32,000 bases of DNA, taken from the NCBI RefSeq assembly GCF_000010625.1, contig NC_010296.1, positions 4,680,001 to 4,712,000 of the forward strand, given 5' to 3'. The DNA is from Microcystis aeruginosa NIES-843. GTDB lineage: Bacteria; Cyanobacteriota; Cyanobacteriia; Cyanobacteriales; Microcystaceae. Each line of letters begins with the position of its first letter. Position 1 is the stretch's first letter. The notes under the pieces are model-generated. The model saw only the letters and a program-made list of their open reading frames with translations. It made no database searches and was not told the DNA's origin. Made by a program: the position numbers and the translations under genes. Shown here one piece after another: positions 2,698 through 30,052 of the stretch.

Positions 2698-3876
2698 GGG
2701 AGCATCCCAGTTTTGCAATGAGTAAAAATACTCAGGCAATATCGCCGTTGAGATAAGCACAACGTAGCTTCAAATACTGAGGAACATTCTCTGCTTTCCA
2801 TTGTGCTCCCACAATTTTCATTCTTGCACCTATTTGCTTAATCTTTGACTCTACACTTCCAGAACCGATGCAAATCCCTTGTGATTGATAGAGTTCGTAA
2901 TTGGGTATTCTTTCTCGATGTTTATCGACATATTTGGTGAAATTTATAGCCTGTTTCTTTTTGCATCCCTCTAATTCCTCTAAAACTCTTTTCACCTCTC
3001 CTTTCCATAAATTCTCTTTGATTCTATTCAGACGCTTGTTTGACCCGCCTATTTTCTTCATATTCTCTACTAAATGATACCAATCCAATATTTCTCTCCT
3101 TTTAACACCGATTTTCTCCATCAGATTCCACACCCCATCATGACCATCTCCTAAACAGGTGACTACCTCTGTTAAGGGCTGACGGTTCACCCATTCCAGT
3201 AATTCTTCATTTTGCTGAAAAAATCCCGCACATTCTTGACCATGCAGACTTACTGCTTTGTAATCTCGACCTTGACTCGGTTGTCCTTTGGGCGTTCTGA
3301 TTCTGACTTTTCCGACCTCTACACTCAATGCTTCTACCGGACTCTTTGCTTCTGCTTCCTCAAATTTATATCTTTGTACAAGCCTCTGTTGACTACTGCC
3401 TGAAACTGCCATTCCTGTCGCCATTTTGATAGCTTTTTCCGCATCTTCAAAAGAGACTTTAGCCACTGCTCCTAAGCAACATTTCTCCAGCATGGGACTT
3501 AATCGATTATTCTTGCTTAATCCTAGTTTATCGGCTTGTTTCTCGCTTATCTTGACTTTCCCTATGATACTGCTTACGCTTTTGGTTCGCCCTGCTTGGG
3601 TTCCTGTTGCTGATTCAAAAAAAAATTGCCTATGGCAGGACCCAATGTAGTCAGCCAATGGTCTCGCAGGGCGGTTTCAATGCCCTCAAAGCTACGTAGT
3701 TGTTCTTCTGGGGTATTATCGACTAGAATTTGAGCAATGGCTTTTAAATGTTGATCTAGTTGTTCTTTTTGGTCTGTATTCATGATTCTACCGTTTAATT
3801 GTTTCTCTTTATTTTGCCTTAGCTAACGTTTTTAGTCTCTAAGCATTTATACTTATGGCAAAATTGGGATGCTCCC
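2698..3876 (-). mobile_element. IS element (1179 bp); DDE transposase; ISKra4/ISLre2-like assignment is tentative
   Basis: Imperfect ~30-bp terminal inverted repeats begin GGGAGCATCCCA. A 9-bp target duplication AAGCACCAA lies at 2689-2697 and 3877-3885. The intact target is visible in the paralogue at 10640-10650. Confidence 0.85.
2732..3783 (-). CDS. IS transposase in two overlapping frames (69 aa + 308 aa), joined by a -1 slip on a T9 run
   Basis: ORFs 3574-3783 and 2732-3658 overlap. The T9 run (A9 on the plus strand, 3617-3625) lies in the overlap. Motifs include LGDGHDGVWN, DWYHLVEN and IGSGSVES. Confidence 0.7.
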
Positions 3877-4696
3877 AAGCACCAATGGCGAGTAAACCTA
3901 AGACTGAAGCAGGTTCAGGTACATTTGCTTTGCGAAAAGCAACTTCACCAATAGCACAGCTAGGGAAACTAGCAGGGTTTGGTTGCGGACAGTCCGACAT
4001 ATCAAACCGGATATACCGGGTATTCACCGACGCAAAGGAGAACACGTCAGCTGGATAGTTGGCCAAAGGGTTATCGGTCGGTTTCAATCCTAATGCCAAT
4101 GGCGCAAAGTTTATGCCATCCGAGGAGTGAAATAAATTGAGAGTCCCTATGCCTGAAGTTTCCTCGTTCCAAAGCGCCAAGCGATCAATATTCGTTAGAG
4201 AGCCGAGGTCGTAAGTGACACTCGCACTCGTAGTGCCATAATTGCTGAACCATTCATAACCGGGAAAAGTGAGAGTATGCAGTGGATTTGTTGCTAAATA
4301 AGTGTCAAAGTCTGTGACACCGCTTACAAAGTTGCTGGACAAGCCAGCCTGGTTAATGGTTTCTGTGAGGGTACCGAACCCCGGTCCGCCGCTATTGATA
4401 ATACCGCTCGTTGGGCTAAAAATTACTCCAGCATCTGCTTTAGGAGCAGCAATAATGCAGGTAGAAAGGGCTGCTCCAGCAGCAGCCGTTGAAAATTTTT
4501 TGATCACAGTCGAAGTTTTCATGTTCAGAAAGTTTCCTCAAAACAAATAAATAAACAAATGTTCTGAATGCCCTTTAAAGGAGAAAATCTCAAATTAAGC
4601 GACATTGGCAAGGGAGAAAGACTGGTTTTTTCAAAATTGCCAATCACTAAATTTTAAGCTAGTTCCTCAATGACAAGACAGAGCCATAACGCGATT

Positions 4697-4724
4697 ATTA
4701 TACCCCCCCCCCCGATTTTGTCAA
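4697..4724 (-). promoter_or_regulatory. sigma70-type promoter TTGACA-N16-TATAAT with a G11 tract inside the spacer
   Basis: The minus strand reads cacTTGACAaaatcGGGGGGGGGGGTATAATaat, about 170 nt upstream of the PEP-CTERM ATG at 4522. Confidence 0.55.
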
Positions 4725-4798
4725 GTGTAAACCAACAGAAATTAAAAAAATTTTACAATTATTGTTGCCCTTGAGAGTAGGGTAGTAAAAAATAAAAA

Positions 4799-4998
4799 AT
4801 CTTTGGTTCTTCGTTGCCTGGTATGGTTTGATCGGGTGGCATAAATCGACTAAATCCTTATCTGGCAAGAGACTTAATTGATTAGTTCGTTCTAGAACGA
4901 AAACAATTGACAAATATCGCAGCAATCTCTTTCTCTATAAGGGTTTCATCTCTTATAATCCCGTCCCTTGCATAACACAAACCGAAGAACCAAATCTT
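4799..4998. repeat. MITE-like repeat family C (~200 bp)
   Basis: Short inverted termini are TTTGGTTCTTCG / CGAAGAACCAAA. A second copy lies at 11689-11886 and a fragment at 15535-15622. Confidence 0.45.
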
Positions 4999-5061
4999 TT
5001 AACCGGTTGGTCTTGGATTTTAGAATCTCTATGTCTGTCGGGAATTGAGAAATTTAGTATG

Positions 5062-5279: not shown

Positions 5280-5474
5280 CTAACTACTAATCTTGTTAGC
5301 GCGTAACAACTCTCGACGCACCTCATAATCAGCAATTTCTGGAAGAATAACCCTAATACCTGCTTTAATTAGCGTTTGTAGCCAACAATTACAAGCTAGA
5401 CTTTCAGGCGCTCGCTTAGGATTAGTAATTAAACCGATAATTCCCGTATCTAATAAAACTACTCTATTCACCAA
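5280..5474 (-). pseudogene. PIN-domain toxin, copy B, truncated after ~61 codons
   Basis: It is colinear with the N-terminal part of 7323-7778 down to about 5288. Unrelated sequence follows. Confidence 0.75.
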
Positions 5475-5770
5475 GTTACTCCCTTTAAGTGAGCCGGAAA
5501 TAAAGGACGCTCAGATAAGCGATCTTGGTCAAGTGCTTCGATTAAATATTCACCTGTTTCTTTTTGTTCTTGTTCATCTTCTTCATCAATCCAAGATTGA
5601 AGTAAATTAACCAGTTTGGTCTGTTTTTCTTGTTCTAAAATAGTATCCTTGAGCAACTTTAGGACATAAGCTTCTAGAGAAAGACCTTTCTCCCTCGCTT
5701 TTTGGCTGAGATATTGTTCGATTTCTGATGTTAAATTAAGAGTTAGTGGCATGGGCTTGACTTGAATCAA
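5468..5770 (-). CDS. ribbon-helix-helix-type antitoxin, copy B (100 aa)
   Basis: It is near-identical to 7772-8074. Confidence 0.75.
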   Translation of the reverse strand: MIQVKPMPLTLNLTSEIEQYLSQKAREKGLSLEAYVLKLLKDTILEQEKQTKLVNLLQSWIDEEDEQEQKETGEYLIEALDQDRLSERPLFPAHLKGVTW

Positions 5771-7322: not shown

Positions 7323-7778
7323 TCAATCAAAACTAATATTTTGCCATAAATCTGCTCTGACAAATTTGGATAAATGACCTACATTTGTTGTTACAATTAT
7401 CAGATTTTTCACAGATAACGTGACAGCTTGTGCAATTAAAATCATATCACCATCAATTGTTTTATCTCCTGCTGTGGGTTGTCCTTGTTGGCGTGCCTGC
7501 GCCCAAAATAAAGCAGCTTTTCCCATTGCATCCGTTGTAATGGCTAGGTATTCTATTAAGTTAGCTAACTCATCCAGTCGCTTAATTCCTTTAATCTTGT
7601 TAGCGCGTAACAACTCTCGACGCACCTCATAATCAGCAATTTCTGGAAGAATAACCCTAATAGCTGCTTTAATTAGTATTTGTAGCCAACAATTACAAGC
7701 TAGACTTTCATGCGCTCGCTTAGGATTAGTAATTAAACCGATAATTCCCGTATCTAATAAAACTACTCTATTCACCAA
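7323..7778 (-). CDS. PIN-domain (VapC-like) toxin, copy C, intact (151 aa)
   Basis: Motifs VLLDTGIIG, LPEIADYEV, IDGDMILIAQAV and TTNVGH. The start (TTG/GTG) overlaps the antitoxin stop. Confidence 0.85.
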   Translation of the reverse strand: MVNRVVLLDTGIIGLITNPKRAHESLACNCWLQILIKAAIRVILPEIADYEVRRELLRANKIKGIKRLDELANLIEYLAITTDAMGKAALFWAQARQQGQPTAGDKTIDGDMILIAQAVTLSVKNLIIVTTNVGHLSKFVRADLWQNISFD

Positions 7779-8074
7779 GTTACTCCCTTTAAGTGAGCCG
7801 GAAATAAAGGACGCTCAGATAAGCGATCTTGGTCAAGTGCTTCGATTAAATATTCACCGGTTTCTTGTTGTTCTTGTTCATCTTCTTCATCAATCCAAGA
7901 TTGAAGTAAATTAACCAGTTTGGTCTGTTTTTCTTGTTCTAAAATAGTATCTTTAAGTAGCTTGAGGACATAATCTTCTAGAGAAAGACCTTTCTCCGTC
8001 GCTTTTTGGCTGAGATATTGTTCGATTTCCGATGTTAAATTAAGAGTTAGTGGCATGGGCTTGACTTGAATCAA
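7772..8074 (-). CDS. ribbon-helix-helix-type antitoxin, copy C (100 aa)
   Basis: It lies upstream of, and overlaps, the intact PIN gene. It shows the RHH-like N-terminus and the acidic central stretch EEDEQEQQE. Confidence 0.8.
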   Translation of the reverse strand: MIQVKPMPLTLNLTSEIEQYLSQKATEKGLSLEDYVLKLLKDTILEQEKQTKLVNLLQSWIDEEDEQEQQETGEYLIEALDQDRLSERPLFPAHLKGVTW

Positions 8075-8465
8075 TTTATCGTGTCTTTAACTATTATAAA
8101 CAAAAAAGCGATCGCCGTCTATCAAGAGAGCGCAATTGCAGCAATTCCAAATTTAAGGTTTCATGACATAAAAATCCTTATGACAAGAGGGTTGTACAAT
8201 TCTTAACATTTGGATTGATCTCTGAAATGGCGCAAAATCGTTCCGAATTTATTTTTGCTGGCGCAATTGCTGCCAATAATCCTCGCCAAAATCAGCCGCC
8301 TGGATTGCACCAAAGATATCAATCTTCAATGTTCGATACGAGGCATTAGAGAGGAGTGAGAGAAGATGTTGTCATCGAAAATTTGGGTCTGAAACCCCGT
8401 CGTTCTACGACGGCTTTACCGTTAAATATTAGCGCATTTACACGATATATGCTAGAATGCGAGAT

Positions 8466-9654
8466 ATGGAAAAAGCCTATTCTTACCGATTTTACCCAAC
8501 ACCAACACAAGAGTCGCTATTGCGGCGCACATTGGGCTGTGTAAGATTAGTTTACAACAAAGCTCTCCACGAACGAACACAAGCTTGGTACGAAAAGCAA
8601 GAAAGAGTAGGCTACGCTCAAACTTCTTCAATGCTAACCCATTGGAAAAAACAAGAAGAATTAAACTTTTTAAACGAAGTAAGCTGTGTACCTTTACAAC
8701 AAGGGTTAAGACACCTACAAACAGCTTTTACTAATTTCTTTGCTGGTCGTACTAAGTATCCTAACTTTAAGAAAAAACATCAGGGAGGAAGTGCCGAATT
8801 TACCAAATCTGCTTTTAAATTTAAAGACAGACAAATCTATTTAGCTAAATGCACAGAACCTTTACCTATTCGATGGTCAAGACAAATACCAGAAAGCTGT
8901 GAACCAAGCACAGTAACAGTCAGATTACATCCATCTGGACGTTGGCATATTTCAATTAGATTTGATGACCCAACGATTAAGCCATTACCAGTAACAGATA
9001 AAGCCATTGGAATTGACTTAGGAATTAGTAGCCTCGTGATTACCAGCGATGGTGACAAAGTATCTAATCCTAAGCATTTTAAGAAACATTATCGGAGACT
9101 GCGAAGAGCATCTAAAAGTCTTTCTCGAAAACAGAAAGGGTCAAAAAATCGGGAAAAAGCAAGAATCAAAGTAGCCAAAATTCACGCTCAAATCACCGAT
9201 AGCAGGAAAGACCATTTACACAAGCTAACCACTCAATTAGTTCGTGAAAACCAAACGATTGTGGTTGAGAATTTAGCCGTCAAGAATATGGTCAAAAACC
9301 CGAAATTATCTCAGGCAATATCTGATGTAAGCTGGGGAGAAATCACCCGACAATTAGCCTATAAATGCCGTTGGTATGGGAGAAATTACATCGAAATAGA
9401 TAGATGGTTTCCTAGCTCTAAAAGGTGTAGTAATTGCGGGTATATTGCCCTTGAAAATGCCGTTAAATGTTCGAGAGTGGGACTGTCCAGACTGTGGGAC
9501 TCACCATGACCGAGATATTAACGCCAGTAAAAATATTTTGGCCGCAGGGCTTGCGGTGTCAGTCTGTAGAGCGACCATAAGACCAGAACAGAGTAAATCT
9601 GTTAAGGCAGGTGCGAAAAATCCTTCGGGAAAGAAGCAGAAACCTAAATCGTGA
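8466..9654 (+). pseudogene. tnpB: tnpB with a frameshift near 9448-9460
   Basis: It is colinear with the intact 395-aa copy. Copy 1 has ATTGCCCTTGAAAATGCC where copy 2 has ATTGTCGAAAAGATGCC, a 1-nt length difference. This splits the ORF into 8457-9509 and 9445-9654. Confidence 0.8.
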
Positions 9655-10610: not shown

Positions 10611-11411
10611 TTATTTTAATTTGCGCTTCAAGACTGAACCTGCACCCAAAGCACCAATGGCAAGTAAACCTAAGACTGAAGCAGGTTCGGGTGTCTTTTG
10701 TGGCGGGTTAACTTGCCCTGGAAGTCCAAAGCGCAGGCTATCAATGGCAAAACCAGCAGGCTCAGGACCGATGAGACTGAACTGCAAACCTGCAATTGCC
10801 GCACTGCCATTGCTAGTGACTAAACCCATAAACTCAATGCCCGTGCCAGTATTGGATACTTGACCGAGAACTGAGCCATCTCGGGCAAAGGCTGTGATGG
10901 CAGTTGAGTTGGGAGCATCGAAGAAACCGCCATCTAACCCCACGCCGGCCATGTCTTTGTCGAATAAAACCGTTATAGGACCGTTAAATAAGGGAGTTCC
11001 CGACAGCACCGGGCTATTAGGTGCTGCTCCATCACTGTTGATGAAAGTTTTTGGGGAATTCGGATCCAGGGCCAGAGGGTTGGTGGGCGTACCGACAACA
11101 CAGCCAGTGGCAGCACCACCGGGGCAATCTACTCCAGGGTTAGCAGACAAACTCTGGCCTTGATAGAAGCCACCAAAGGTAACAGTTGGTGCCGTCAAGG
11201 GATTGCCGCCGTAAGCCGCCGGAGCATAAGTAGGGTTGACCGTACCCAGACCAAATTCACTAAAGGTGATCAATCCTGCTTGAGGAGTGAAGGAACTCTG
11301 CGGAATTCGGACGACACTGACCGCATTAGCAGGAAAGTTACTAAGGGCGAGAAATGCTGCCGATCCAGTAACAACCGTTGACAGTTTTTTAATTGCAATC
11401 GAAGTTTTCAT
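10611..11411 (-). CDS. PEP-CTERM sorting-domain surface protein (266 aa), intact
   Basis: There is a signal peptide (MKTSIAIKKLSTVVTGSAAFLALS). The C-terminus is PEPASVLGLLAIGALGAGSVLKRKLK. Confidence 0.85.
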   Translation of the reverse strand: MKTSIAIKKLSTVVTGSAAFLALSNFPANAVSVVRIPQSSFTPQAGLITFSEFGLGTVNPTYAPAAYGGNPLTAPTVTFGGFYQGQSLSANPGVDCPGGAATGCVVGTPTNPLALDPNSPKTFINSDGAAPNSPVLSGTPLFNGPITVLFDKDMAGVGLDGGFFDAPNSTAITAFARDGSVLGQVSNTGTGIEFMGLVTSNGSAAIAGLQFSLIGPEPAGFAIDSLRFGLPGQVNPPQKTPEPASVLGLLAIGALGAGSVLKRKLK

Positions 11412-11586
11412 GTTCAGAAACTTTCCTCAAAACAAATAAACAAACAAACAAATGTTCTGAATGCCCTTTAAAGGAGAAAATCTCAAATTAAGCGACATTG
11501 GCAAGGGAGAAAAATTGGTTTTTTCAAAATTGCCAATCACTAAATTTTAAGCTAGTTCCTCAATGACAAGACAGAGCCATAACGGG

Positions 11587-11613
11587 ATTCTACCCCCCCC
11601 CCGATTTTGTCAA
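11587..11613 (-). promoter_or_regulatory. paralogous promoter TTGACA-N15-TAGAAT with a G10 tract in the spacer
   Basis: The minus strand reads cacTTGACAaaatcGGGGGGGGGGTAGAATccc, upstream of the ATG at 11411. Confidence 0.5.
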
Positions 11614-11688
11614 GTGTAAACCAACAGAAATTAAAAAAATTTTACAATTATTGTTGCCCTTGAGAGTAGGGTAGTAAAAAATAAAAAA

Positions 11689-11886
11689 TCTTTGGTTCTT
11701 CGTTACCTGGTATGGTTCGATCGGGTGGCATAAATCGACTAAATTCTTATCTGGCAAGAGACTTAATTGATTAGTTCGTTCTAGATCGAAAACAATTGAC
11801 AAATCTCGAAGCAATCTCTTTCTCTATAAGGGTTTCATCTCTTATAATCCCGTCCCTTGCATAACACAAACCGAAGAACCAAAATC
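11689..11886. repeat. MITE-like repeat family C, copy 2
   Basis: It is colinear with 4799-4998. Confidence 0.45.
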
Positions 11887-12002
11887 TTGAATTAAGCGAC
11901 ATTGGCAAGGGAGAAAGACTGGTTTTTTCAAAATTGCCAATCACTAAATTTTAAGCCAGTTCCTCAATGACAAGACAGAGCCATAACGGGATTCTACCCC
12001 CC
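11882..12002 (-). repeat. partial duplicate of the PEP-CTERM leader, including -10 box and a G6 tract but no -35
   Basis: It matches 11478-11602 and 4580-4713. It ends ...TAGAAT preceded by GGGGGG and unrelated sequence. Confidence 0.7.
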
Positions 12003-12134
12003 GATTTAGGGCAGCTTTGGTTGGATTGTTAGACGAATTTTAAACGTTTTTAAAATTGTCCCACCTGCTGAGGTAATCCTAAACAAAATCGCCGCTCTTT
12101 AAATCTAACTTTAGGTAGAAACCAGGTATTTCTT

Positions 12135-12236
12135 TCGATAGATTATAGAGACTTATAGATATCTATATATAGATATATATACCTATATCTATATATAGAT
12201 ATAGGTATAGATTACAATCGATAGATTTCTCGTTTC
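12135..12236. repeat. TA-rich ATAGATAT-type low-complexity block with a perfect 28-bp palindrome (12181-12208)
   Basis: ACCTATATCTATATATAGATATAGGT is self-complementary. It is flanked by direct TCGATAGATT repeats. Confidence 0.7.
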
Positions 12237-12259
12237 TAGGCAGAGCCTAGAAATGTTTA

Positions 12260-12420
12260 TTGACATCCTCGCCGCCGTAAAACGGACGGCGATTCCCAAA
12301 CCTCACGATTTAGGTTTCTGCTTCTTTCCCTTGCGGGGTTTCGCACCTGCCTTAACAGATTTACTCTGTTCTGGTCTTATGGTCGCTCTACAGACTGACA
12401 CCGCAAGCCCTGCGGCCAAA
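12260..12420 (-). ncRNA. putative omega RNA scaffold of the intact TnpB; 5' limit approximate
   Basis: The reasoning is the same as for 9540-9697. The right-end hairpin CGCCGTCCGTTTTACGGCGGCG is conserved. Confidence 0.35.
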
Positions 12421-13490
12421 ATATTTTTACTAGCGTTAACATCTCGGTCATGGTGTGTCCCACAGTCTGGACAATCCCATTCTCGAACATTTAACGGCAT
12501 CTTTTCGACAATATACCCGCAATTACTACATCTTTTAGAGCTAGGAAACCATCTATCTATTTCGATGTAATTTCTCCCATACCAACGGCATTTATAGGCT
12601 AATTGTCGGGTGATTTCTCCCCAGCTTACATCAGATATTGCCTGAGATAATTTCGGGTTTTTGACCATATTCTTGACGGCTAAATTCTCAACCACAATCG
12701 TTTGGTTTTCACGAACTAATTGAGTGGTTAGCTTATGTAAATGGTCTTTTCTGCTATCGGTGATTTGAGCGTGAATCCTGGCTACTTTGATTCTTGCTTT
12801 TTCCCGATTTTTTGACCCTTTCTGTTTTCTAGAAAGGCTTTTAGATGCTCTTCGCAGTCTCCGATAATGCTTTTTAAAATGCTTGGGATTAGACACTTTA
12901 TCGCCATCGCTGGTAATCACGAGGCTACTAATTCCTAAGTCAATTCCAATGGCTTTATCTGTTACTGGTAAAGGCTTAATCGTTGGGTCATCAAATCTTA
13001 TTGAGATATGCCAACGTCCAGAAGGATGTAATCTGACTGTTACTGTGCTTGGTTCACAGCTTTCTGGTATTTGTCTTGACCATCGAATAGGTAAAGGTTC
13101 TGTGCATTTAGCTAAATAGATTTGTCTGTCTTTAAATTTAAAAGCAGATTTGGTAAATTCGGCACTTCCTCCCTGATGTTTTTTCTTAAAGTTAGGATAC
13201 TTAGTACGACCAGCAAAGAAGTTAGTAAAAGCTGTTTGTAAATGTCTTAACCCTTGTTGTAAAGGTACACAGCTTACTTCATTGAGAAAGTCTAATTCTT
13301 CTTGTTTTTTCCAATCGGTTAGCATTGAAGAAGTTTGAGCGTAGCCTACTCTTTCTTGTCTTTCGTACCAAGCTTGTGTTCGTTCGTGGAGAGCTTTATT
13401 GTAAACCAATCTTACACATCCCAAAGTGCGCCGCAATAGCGACTCTTGTTCTGGTGTCGGGTAAAATCGGTAAGAATAGGCTTTTTCCAT
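12303..13490 (-). CDS. tnpB: TnpB RNA-guided endonuclease (395 aa), intact
   Basis: RuvC motifs IGIDLGI, VVENL and HDRDVNASKNI are present. The zinc finger is CSNCG...CPDCG. Confidence 0.9.
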   Translation of the reverse strand: MEKAYSYRFYPTPEQESLLRRTLGCVRLVYNKALHERTQAWYERQERVGYAQTSSMLTDWKKQEELDFLNEVSCVPLQQGLRHLQTAFTNFFAGRTKYPNFKKKHQGGSAEFTKSAFKFKDRQIYLAKCTEPLPIRWSRQIPESCEPSTVTVRLHPSGRWHISIRFDDPTIKPLPVTDKAIGIDLGISSLVITSDGDKVSNPKHFKKHYRRLRRASKSLSRKQKGSKNREKARIKVARIHAQITDSRKDHLHKLTTQLVRENQTIVVENLAVKNMVKNPKLSQAISDVSWGEITRQLAYKCRWYGRNYIEIDRWFPSSKRCSNCGYIVEKMPLNVREWDCPDCGTHHDRDVNASKNILAAGLAVSVCRATIRPEQSKSVKAGAKPRKGKKQKPKS

Positions 13491-13704
13491 GTCTCATATT
13501 TTAGCATATATTTCGTAAATGTGCTAATATTTAACAGCAAAGCCGCCGTAAAACGGCGGGGTTTCAGACCCAAATTTTCGATGAGAGGCTCTGCCTCCTG
13601 AGTAATCTTTACAGAAGGCAGAGCCTTCAAAAATCATTCCCAAGCTCCGCCTGGGAATGAGACGGCGAAAATCATTGCCTCTTGCCTATCCTAACCATTA
13701 CTTA

Positions 13705-13879
13705 TAAGTAGGTAGGTGTTAAAAGTTGTCAGACACCCCCCTTATCAAGGGGGATCCCCCCGCCTATCGGCACCCCCCTTATCAAGGGGGGCAGGGGGGA
13801 TCGGCACCCCCCTTATCAAGGGGGGCAGGGGGGATCGAACCTAAAATCTATGTTTAATTTAATTACAACCAGCTACTTA
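13705..13879. mobile_element. MITE family B with internal G6/C6 hairpin repeats (3 cores)
   Basis: Inverted termini are TAAGTAGGTAGGTGTTAAAAGTT / AATTTAATTACAACCAGCTACTTA. Three CCCCCCTTATCAAGGGGG(G) cores are present. A second copy lies at 18629-18883. Confidence 0.6.
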
Positions 13880-13890
13880 ACAGCCAATCC

Positions 13891-14523
13891 CTAATCTCTC
13901 AATAACAGATATTCGCGAATCTCAAAAAAGTTATCCCAAGGAATATAGGGTTGATTTTCCGCTTGCAGATAATCGATTAAACGATCCCTAGCAAAAACTA
14001 GATCGGCCCTTCTAGCCATGGTAATATCGGTAACGGAATCACCGATCGCAATAGTTTCTACTCCCGAATATTTAGCCATAATCAAGGCTTTAGCCACTAA
14101 TTCCGTCTCATTTTCCCAATCGGAATGAACTTGCAAATATTCCCCTTGAGTATGAAGATTGACCCCATAAATTGCCGTCACCTTATCTAATAGTCCCTCC
14201 CGTTTTAAGACCGTTTCAATCATGCCTTGGATGCCACCGGAGATAATAATAAAAGGGATGGATTGCTCCTGTAAAAAAGCGAGGAATTCGGCTAATCCGG
14301 GGCGAATTGGCTTGCTTTCGGCATAGGCGAGAATATCGGCGTATTTTTGGCTCGGTATCGACTCTAGCAGTTGACGAACACCCCGGCGCAGAGTCAGAGT
14401 GCGAGCGTACATTTGGGGCATAATTTGGGCCGATAAATCGGGGGCGAATTCTTTGAGCATACCCGCAAAAGTTTCCACGGCGGTGATAGTGCCATCAAAG
14501 TCACAGAAAACAATTTTACTCAT
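13891..14523 (-). CDS. HAD-IB family phosphatase, MtnX-like
   Basis: Motifs FCDFDGTIT (motif I), ISGG and IGDSVTD. The C-terminal FARD..L pattern matches MtnX. Confidence 0.7.
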   Translation of the reverse strand: MSKIVFCDFDGTITAVETFAGMLKEFAPDLSAQIMPQMYARTLTLRRGVRQLLESIPSQKYADILAYAESKPIRPGLAEFLAFLQEQSIPFIIISGGIQGMIETVLKREGLLDKVTAIYGVNLHTQGEYLQVHSDWENETELVAKALIMAKYSGVETIAIGDSVTDITMARRADLVFARDRLIDYLQAENQPYIPWDNFFEIREYLLLRD

Positions 14524-18628: not shown

Positions 18629-18883
18629 TAAGTAGGTAGGCGTTAAAAGTTGTCAGATGCCCCCCTTATTAAGGGGGGATTAAGGGGGGATCGGCACCCC
18701 CCTTATCAAGGGTAGATCCCCCCGCCTATCGGCACCCCCCTTATCAAGGGTAGATCCCCCCGCCTATCGGCACCCCCCTTATCAAGGGTAGATCCCCCCG
18801 CCTATCGGCACCCCCCTTATCAAGGGGGGCAGGGGGGATCAGACCTAAAATCCATTTTTAATTTAATTATAACCAACCACTTA
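18629..18883. mobile_element. MITE family B, copy 2, with five hairpin cores including 3 perfect 38-bp tandem units
   Basis: It has the same termini as 13705-13879. The unit GGCACCCCCCTTATCAAGGGTAGATCCCCCCGCCTATC repeats at 18693, 18731 and 18769. Confidence 0.6.
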
Positions 18884-26233: not shown

Positions 26234-26590
26234 TTGACATCCTCGCCGCCCTAAAAGTGCGGCGATTCCTAAACCTCACGATTTAAGTTTCTGCTTCCAC
26301 CACCGTCGCATACCACAGTTAAAAAACCATGTACTGTCTTACACAGAGTCCACAGACTTTCGCCCCATTTCAGAAGCCCGATTCCGTGTGTCCCACGGTA
26401 CGTTGACCGCCTATAGCTTCTTGTACTTGTTGCGCGCGACTTTTTACCCGGCCAAGCTTTTCTGGTCGGAACCCCCTAAGCCGAGTTTTCAAGGTGCTGC
26501 GCCGTCCACTTGGTTTTCGAGACTGGCCTTTTAATTCTAACGTAAAGCCAACCTAGAACGGCGGGGTTTCAGACCCAAAATTTCCGATGA
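26234..26590 (-). mobile_element. 357-bp IS605-family mini-element (decayed tnpB core, both end hairpins retained)
   Basis: The right end ...GGCGAGGATGTCAA and left end TCATCGGAAATTTTGGGTCTGAAACCCCGCC... match the two full copies. The interior keeps short tnpB-like stretches such as GTGTGTCCCAC but has no ORF. Confidence 0.7.
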
Positions 26591-29915: not shown

Positions 29916-30033
29916 GGTGTTGGGTGTTGGGGAAGTGGGGAAGTGGGGGGGTGGGGTGTAGGGTGTAGGGTGTGGGGTGTGGGGTGTAGGGTGTGGGGTG
30001 TGGGGTGTAGGGTGTAGGGTGTAGGGTGTGGGA
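29916..30033. repeat. G-rich heptamer array; 11 perfect GGGTGTR units at 29954-30030 preceded by degenerate units
   Basis: This is a direct count. The same heptamer occurs inside MITE family A. Confidence 0.85.
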
Positions 30034-30052
30034 AGAATAACTAAAAATAATC

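Follow-up and report, generated by a model that had tools for sequence, protein, structure and literature searches.

A hypermutable G-run in the spacer of a sigma-70 consensus promoter as a candidate switch for PEP-CTERM protein genes in Microcystis

The stretch of DNA analyzed here, referred to as the window, comprises 32,000 nucleotides of Microcystis aeruginosa NIES-843, and all coordinates below are positions within it. Two related genes on its minus strand are the subject of this study. Gene 1 (3839..4522) encodes a protein of 227 aa with a signal peptide, an F5/8-type-C (discoidin)-like domain, which is a weak match, and a truncated PEP-CTERM tag. Gene 2 (10611..11411) encodes a protein of 266 aa with a signal peptide and a complete PEP-CTERM tag that scores 18.1 bits with TIGR02595 against a cut-off of 16. 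The gene 2 protein is identical in Microcystis viridis NIES-102 (AP019314.1), a genome that is 97.5-98.8% identical to the window across the locus. The tag of gene 1 halts at ...VPEPASVLGLLAIGA and is followed by WEHPNFAISINA, the protein thus ending ...LLAIGAWEHPNFAISINA; the full signal of an exosortase substrate, namely PEP motif, hydrophobic helix and basic cluster (TIGR02595, PF07589), is not present in it, and no PEP-CTERM model matched. Intact orthologues of gene 1 (91-94% identity; P0127-P0133) end ...LLAIGALGAGAALKRKLK. An inserted element at 2732..3873 (minus strand), carrying UPF0236-family transposase ORFs of 69 aa and 308 aa that are apparently split, severs the end of the gene 1 tag. 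Given that homology to gene 2 ends at 3874, that the transposase ORFs lie directly downstream and that the orthologues are intact, gene 1 is, as judged from these alignments, a PEP-CTERM gene whose sorting signal was cut by the insertion. The same truncated protein is present in nine metagenome contigs, indicating that the allele is widespread. An earlier note on this DNA had called the gene downstream of the G-run a PEP-CTERM surface-protein gene; the signal peptide and the intact orthologues agree with that description, but the tag of this particular allele is truncated by the insertion sequence. More generally, all genes preceded by the conserved cassette described below start with the signal peptide MKTSTVLKKLS..., and gene 2 and other alleles pass the TIGR02595 PEP_CTERM model, from which we infer that their products are surface-exposed or secreted. 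No exosortase was seen among the window ORFs scanned.

Upstream of gene 1, the minus strand from 4724 to 4697 reads TTGACA-AAATC-GGGGGGGGGGG-TATAAT. The -35 hexamer occupies 4719..4724, the fixed part of the spacer, AAATC, 4714..4718, the G11 homopolymer (C11 on the plus strand) 4703..4713, and the -10 hexamer 4697..4702, the latter being followed by an extra AAT peculiar to this allele. The spacer is therefore 16 nt long, 11 of them G, exactly the layout that the earlier note had read here. When compared with the sigma-70 (group 1) consensus, in which TTGACA and TATAAT are 17 +/- 1 nt apart, the gene 1 promoter scores 12/12, and the next best site found by the promoter scan between 3500 and 12500 scores 10/12. 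It is the sole perfect sigma-70 consensus within the window: TTGACA-N15-19-TATAAT occurs once, and was found in none of 100 dinucleotide-preserving shuffles. The start of gene 1, at 4522, lies 174 nt 3' of the -10, and from 4522 to 4697 the promoter scan detected no other consensus-like site on the strand of the gene. Gene 2 is preceded by a paralogous promoter (11587..11613, minus strand), composed of TTGACA(11613-11608)-AAATC-G10(11593-11602)-TAGAAT(11592-11587), with a 15-nt spacer, a -10 that matches at 5/6 positions and an overall match of 11/12 at this spacing. Thus the second promoter does share the layout with a different tract length, as had been noted, but it is not a perfect consensus. 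In both promoters a homopolymer longer than 8 nt separates the -35 from the -10, and no other C or G homopolymer in the 32 kb exceeds 7 nt, the length of the third longest. Likewise, all G/C runs of at least 8 in 154 kb of Microcystis DNA fall within the cassette; as this DNA was picked for carrying the cassette, only the sequence around it counts as background. The idea that G-runs are a general habit of the genome is therefore ruled out, none of at least 8 being found outside the cassette in the 154 kb.

The promoter is part of a conserved cassette of about 290 nt, which runs from an upstream block over the -35, the G-run and the -10 to a leader of roughly 170 nt and the opening codons of a signal peptide, and which precedes many different PEP-CTERM genes. 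Alignment indicates that the cassette begins at TTTACTACCCTACTCTCAAGGG and stops about 10 codons into the signal peptide; its signature on the minus strand is ...TTGACAAAATC, the G-run, TAnnAT and then the leader sequence GTTrTkGCTCTGTCTTGTCATTGAGGAAC. The upstream block (TTTACTACCCTACTCTCAAGGGCAACAATAATTGTAAAA...; 4725..4795, minus strand) is common to all copies, and the flanks diverge 5' of it. The two copies in the window are 93-98% identical over about 480 nt 5' of the ATG, and their coding regions are divergent. Beyond the cassette we find unrelated mature domains in proteins of 223, 230, 233, 257, 258, 266 and 271 aa, all of which end VPEPASVLGLLAIGALGAGxxxKRKLK and pass the PEP-CTERM model.

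Further copies were collected in two ways. A 21-mer ending just 5' of the run, and blind to the run itself, was found at 5 places in a one-genome-per-species set of Microcystis and in 9 metagenome contigs; about 20 more contigs came from looking up proteins identical or orthologous to those of the genes. A family census with a chimeric query of signal peptide plus PEP-CTERM tag gave 12 candidates only and was of no use. The compared genome and metagenome copies are labelled L002-L040. Copies obtained with the 21-mer contain TTGACA by construction, and the hexamer is unchanged in copies from searches that did not require it (L029-L031, L033-L038). In the alignment, TTGACA is conserved no better than the neighbouring positions, hence its conservation alone is uninformative. 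The -10 of all copies that have cassette plus leader is TAnnAT (TATAAT, TAGAAT, TAAAAT, TATGAT). Positions 1, 2, 5 and 6 are constant, and positions 3-4 together with the next 3 nt are the most variable outside the run. A constant TA..AT amid variable bases is the pattern expected of a working -10, and, though the cases are few, it suggests that this element is functional.

The predicted leader of about 168 nt (4523..4690, minus strand; its start near G4690 is inferred) shows 92% column identity among alleles, and includes a Shine-Dalgarno sequence, GAGGA, at 4535-4539. A second simple repeat, (TTTG/TTTA)n, is situated just 5' of the Shine-Dalgarno of both genes (4540-4559 and 11429-11452, minus strand). 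It varies by 4 or 8 nt among alleles, giving rise to leaders of 167, 171 or 175 nt, and might affect translation or leader structure. Folding of the leader yielded a z-score of -1.65, no better than shuffles; the aligned leaders, at 92% identity, are too alike to reveal covariation, and their fold contained 0 covarying pairs. The leader may nonetheless be of importance. A known RNA element was rejected as well, given that no Rfam family matches at gathering score in the whole window, the hit in 4450-5050 being a chance match (E = 0.24). A small ORF in the leader, ATGGCTCTGTCTTGTCATTGA (MALSCH*), is also ruled out, since it is not conserved and other alleles read GTTGTTGCT.

The length of the run differs markedly between copies. 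In about 30 genome and metagenome copies it ranges from 7 to 15 nt, in addition to a remnant with G6, while the flanks are 96-98% identical. The shortest form, GGGGTGG, stands before TAAAAT with a 12-nt spacer (L027). G8 is found with TAAAAT and a spacer of 13 nt (L014, L017, L020), G9 with TAAAAT or TAGAAT and 14 nt (L015, L021, L026, L033, L034, L036, L038), and G10 with TAGAAT or TATAAT and 15 nt (gene 2 of the window, L013, L019, L007, L029-L031). Spacers of 16 nt are formed by G11 with TATAAT or TAAAAT (gene 1 of the window, L002-L004, L006, L008, L023, L028) and by the interrupted run G5AG5 with TATGAT in NIES-102 (L010); those of 17 nt by G12 with TAAAAT (L024) and by GGTG9 with TAAAGT (L016, L022, L025). 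At the upper end, G15 with TAGAAT has a spacer of 20 nt (L018). Copies that precede the same gene differ too. Upstream of the gene for the 223-aa protein the run is G8 in one copy (L017) and G15 in another (L018), the two being 97.2% identical over 2465 nt; upstream of that for the 233-aa protein it is G9 (L021) or G12 (L024), and the run is the sole indel in 1348 nt. Gene 2 orthologues have G10, G10, G5AG5, G11 and G10, and for gene 1 the allele truncated by the insertion sequence has G11 six times and G10 once, the intact allele G9 in all four cases. The earlier note had proposed that a slipping tract would leave different lengths in related copies, and that strain assemblies be compared for tract length; its expectation holds well beyond the two copies of the window (8, 9, 10, 11, 12 and 15, the interrupted forms and G6), with lengths that differ even before the same gene and flanks that are near-invariant. 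Hypermutability of the run is thus well supported by these comparisons. Consensus assemblies of the same lineage mostly agree, as G11 is found in 5/6 contigs of one study, G10 in 3/3 and G9 in 4/4, which indicates that switching is not extremely fast. The sixth of the sister assemblies with G11 differs in having G10, and the run is also the place where two contigs (L009, L040) break off. The shortest runs belong to the two cassettes that are unable to drive a PEP-CTERM gene, namely the G6 remnant and the copy with GGGGTGG (L027), in which the gene is replaced. The runs before intact genes that are interrupted, and hence stabilized (L010; L016, L022, L025), have spacers of 16 and 17 nt. Both observations hint at a function beyond mutability, though the cases are few.

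Most copies of the cassette are, by their genomic context, alleles of one chromosomal site, so that the term paralogous does not suit many of them. In ten of them (L014, L017-L021, L023, L026-L028) the cassette is found about 255-425 nt 3' of the same HAD-hydrolase gene, itself preceded by the same CN-hydrolase gene. The window shares this arrangement, with the HAD gene at 13891-14523 (minus strand) and a TnpB insertion sequence plus a MITE inserted between it and the cassette. When copies at this site are compared in pairs, they are 96-98% identical from the HAD gene up to a point about 20-45 nt inside the coding sequence. The mature domains that follow are dissimilar, and the match resumes in the PEP-CTERM coding end and continues beyond it. 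The region 3' of the conserved HAD-hydrolase gene (window 10611-14523 and the same ten copies) appears as a replacement hot spot, in which unrelated PEP-CTERM mature domains (proteins of 223-271 aa) are placed between a shared 5' block of promoter, leader and about 10 codons and a shared 3' block of tag and downstream DNA. It looks as if the middle segment were swapped by recombination at the conserved ends. At a second type of site, a 94-aa RHH-like ORF lies upstream; here we find gene 1 with its orthologues, a gene-2-like allele (L029-L031) and a fusion to a TerD-family gene. Such a fusion occurs in M. wesenbergii-type contigs (L016 6075-6400, L022, L025), where the upstream block through the -10 (GGTG9, TAAAGT) is followed by another leader and by a gene of the TerD family (MAVSLTKGQRVSLEK...). 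This fusion resembles promoter capture, a suggestive likeness seen in few cases.

Mobile elements are frequent in the neighbourhood of the cassettes. A MITE-like element of about 205 nt, with imperfect terminal inverted repeats of 24-30 nt, is located just 5' of both of them, at 4796-5000 and 11691-11883. L029 and L038 have an empty site at this place, and in L019 a MITE copy inside the coding sequence cuts the protein to 51 aa. The remnant cassette (11891..12007, minus strand) consists of AAATC (retained at 12003-12007), G6 (11997-12002), TAGAAT (11991-11996) and a partial leader of about 115 nt, with no -35 and no gene, and has G6 in NIES-102 (L010) too. It adjoins the TnpB insertion sequence and is connected via a MITE to the gene 2 cassette, and it probably arose from recombination between two MITE copies. 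Two IS605-type TnpB (OrfB) genes are present in the window, at 12303-13490 (minus strand) and 8457-9509 (plus strand). About 13 kb away from one of them, short matches to its flanks at 26253-26297 and 26544-26584 have no TnpB ORF, and are possibly a non-autonomous derivative.

A change in the length of a comparable tract has been reported in culture. In a preprint of 13 July 2026 on resequenced subpopulations of M. aeruginosa NIES-298 (bioRxiv 10.64898/2026.07.12.738045), the variant (C)12->11 at 3,210,317 of NZ_CP184724.1, annotated 'intergenic (-199/-259)', is one of only three variants common to the cyanophage-resistant subpopulations. It sits between a leftward PEP-CTERM gene, 199 bp from its start, and a Uma2 endonuclease gene. 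Breseq called it in two subpopulations, with 96.0% and 94.0% of the 150-180 reads carrying it, and not in the other six. The authors gave the variant low priority for being 'far from any gene', and did not connect it with a promoter. They also reported that phage adsorption was unchanged in the resistant cells (10.64898/2026.07.12.738045), making a causal role of the variant in resistance doubtful; it may be a hitch-hiker. Is the NIES-298 tract the cassette described here? The genus is the same, the gene is a PEP-CTERM gene, the poly-G is on its sense strand, and the distance of 199 nt compares with the 189-193 nt expected here for a run of 12, in a leader whose TTTG repeat varies by 4-8 nt. 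In contrast, the neighbouring Uma2 endonuclease gene is a context absent from the compared loci. Judged by geometry, namely strand and distance, the tract may be a copy of this cassette, the fit being good to about 10 nt. What the preprint contributes is an example of such a tract changing its length in culture.

Taken together, these features mark the G-run as a promising, though not demonstrated, candidate for a stochastic switch that would turn PEP-CTERM gene expression on and off, or adjust its level, through spacer length, and we lean, by a modest degree, towards this reading of the sequence. According to the proposed mechanism, the run would supply the variable portion of the spacer in a promoter of sigma-70 type (group 1), the spacer being 5 + n for a run of n. 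In Microcystis the cassette would drive the expression of variable PEP-CTERM proteins, sorted by exosortase and either secreted or placed in the envelope. Slipped-strand mispairing during replication would presumably alter n, and each change would shift the -35, as well as the A/T-rich upstream block, relative to the -10. Extrapolating from known sigma-70 promoters, porA and opc, a run of 11-13 (spacer of 16-18 nt) is predicted to allow strong transcription, a run of 10 (15 nt) weak transcription, and a run of 9 or less (spacer of 14 nt or less) or of 14 or more (19 nt or more) little or no transcription. Consequently the level of the protein would differ from lineage to lineage, in some cases down to none, and probably also in a minority of the cells of a single lineage. 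By this spacing rule gene 1 (G11, TATAAT) would be set 'on' and gene 2 (G10, TAGAAT) 'low'. A role in varying the cell surface, with effects on exposure to phage and grazers or on colony formation, is plausible, yet speculative. More tentative still, and in our estimation rather doubtful as a whole, is the view that Microcystis has true contingency loci, in which a slipping G-run in a shared cassette switches or grades interchangeable PEP-CTERM surface proteins at a domain-swapping hot spot, giving a surface heterogeneity of blooms relevant to cyanophage infection, grazing or colony formation.

Does the length of the run matter for expression? The tract may be hypermutable yet neutral, the gene being transcribed from the -10 alone or with another factor, so that length has no meaningful effect on expression and the variation would be mutational noise at a conserved intergenic site; this, the main rival, we regard as possible, though less likely. 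About half of the copies have spacers of 12-15 nt, including three copies with G8 and all four intact gene 1 contigs, whose G9 (14 nt) would be 'off' by the spacing rule, and a neutral tract fits these observations equally well. The best-scoring copy of the promoter (G11, TATAAT) precedes a gene with a broken sorting tag, the -35 is conserved no more than its surroundings, and consensus lengths are mostly stable within a lineage; on this view the run would slip simply because any G run of at least 8 does. Most mapped cyanobacterial promoters have no recognisable -35, and many work with a -10 alone, hence the -35 may not matter here. With G8 or G9 we find by eye no alternative -35-like hexamer 17 nt from the -10, the hexamers at that place matching TTGACA at 0-1/6 positions. 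Against neutrality, such a tract should gain interruptions and shrink; instead all cassettes before PEP-CTERM frames keep at least 8, pure except for G5AG5 in NIES-102, and the shortest runs are those of the two dead cassettes. Moreover, a perfect TTGACA 16 nt from a perfect TATAAT is unexpected by chance, as the shuffles demonstrate, and a change in length also moves the A/T-rich upstream block with respect to the -10.

It is less probable, and in our view improbable, that the hexamers are not the promoter at all, transcription starting elsewhere, upstream or within the 170-nt conserved region, with the hexamers incidental to a recently spread repeat or recombination module and the G-run a junction between modules. 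Breakpoints do cluster at the run, given that the remnant starts at AAATC-G6 and the TerD fusion stops just past the -10, and the region is dense in MITEs, IS elements and duplications. Yet the gene's strand has no other promoter-like site between the hexamers and the ATG, the TerD fusion retains exactly the upstream region to the -10, as promoter capture would, TA..AT is preserved amid local variability, and most copies share a single orthologous site, whereas a mobile repeat would be scattered. As for errors of sequencing or assembly in the homopolymer, we give them hardly any credence as the source of the length differences. Long-read genomes do miscount homopolymers, and the single G10 versus G11 among the sister assemblies and the contigs that break in the run could be such errors. 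As the whole story, an artefact is ruled out by the range of lengths, which spans 7 nt from G8 to G15, and by the agreement among short-read assemblies made independently for one allele (G10 in three, G9 in four and G11 in five); the change in NIES-298, at 94-96% of reads in two subpopulations and uncalled in six (10.64898/2026.07.12.738045), argues in the same direction.

The spacer-length switch proposed here would be of the porA/opc/fim/vlp type, in an unexpected organism and ecological setting. In Neisseria meningitidis, one-nucleotide changes in the spacers of porA (poly-G) and opc (poly-C) reportedly grade expression between high, intermediate and none. The spacer between -35 and -10 of these genes is largely made up of a homopolymer, G or C, about 9-14 nt in length, and the Microcystis run has the same position, a similar range and polymorphism between strains. 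On the other hand, Neisseria is a host-adapted pathogen and the products are a porin and an adhesin, whereas Microcystis is a free-living bloom former whose cassette carries a 170-nt conserved leader and precedes a PEP-CTERM/exosortase substrate; the dependence of output on length is here a prediction by analogy. Closest to the Microcystis cassette in overall architecture are the vlp genes of Mycoplasma hyorhinis, which are said to combine a conserved block of promoter, leader and signal peptide, with poly-A between -35 and -10, and differing mature parts, so that in both a conserved 5' block stands before variable bodies. The vlp genes are clustered paralogues that switch independently and have a poly-A tract, whereas in Microcystis the tract is of G, two copies were seen per genome in the two genomes compared, and the diversity is mostly one of alternative alleles at one site in different strains. 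In Bordetella pertussis, slippage of poly-C upstream of the -10 reportedly switches expression of fim2 and fim3. There too a C/G run lies 5' of the -10 of genes for surface structures, and paralogous genes have runs of different length. Unlike in Microcystis, the fim run spaces an activator (BvgA) site from the -10, and not a consensus -35; no activator site is known in the Microcystis cassette.

Phase variation by simple sequence repeats (SSR) is regarded as a device of host-adapted pathogens. Searches of the literature on Microcystis and cyanobacteria found no prior description of SSR-mediated phase variation, of contingency loci with homopolymeric tracts or of slipped-strand switching, in agreement with the earlier note, which knew of no such mechanism for cyanobacterial PEP-CTERM genes; in one paper (PMC13232611) homopolymers are mentioned for read trimming only. 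Microcystis genomes hold dozens of PEP-CTERM genes, with 62 clusters reported in strain FD4, and these genes are expressed more highly in colonies than in single cells. If the proposed mechanism is true, no cyanobacterium would have been shown to use SSR-based phase variation before, and a cheap stochastic switch on PEP-CTERM genes would help to account for differences among clonal cells of a bloom in their formation of colonies and susceptibility to phage. Intergenic homopolymer variants would also have to be treated differently in resequencing studies, the one published instance having been discarded for its distance from any gene; the NIES-298 variant, set aside in a study of phage resistance, would then merit a second look.

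Repeats of other kinds are found in the window. A module of RHH-antitoxin-like and PIN-like ORFs is present three times at 97-99% identity (1560-1859, 5426-5725 and 7730-8029, and 1197-1340, 5288-5431 and 7592-7735), indicating that duplicated toxin-antitoxin units make a patchwork of the surroundings of the cassette. Tandem arrays of a G-rich 7-nt unit, (GGGTGTA/GGGGTGT)n, which are telomere-like and potentially quadruplex-forming, lie at 1352-1424 and 29934-30041. Tandem 38-nt repeats of CCCCCC...GGGGGG palindromes (ATCGGCACCCCCCTTATCAAGGG...) occur at 13728-13879 and 18652-18883, about 5 kb apart and each beside a gene end.
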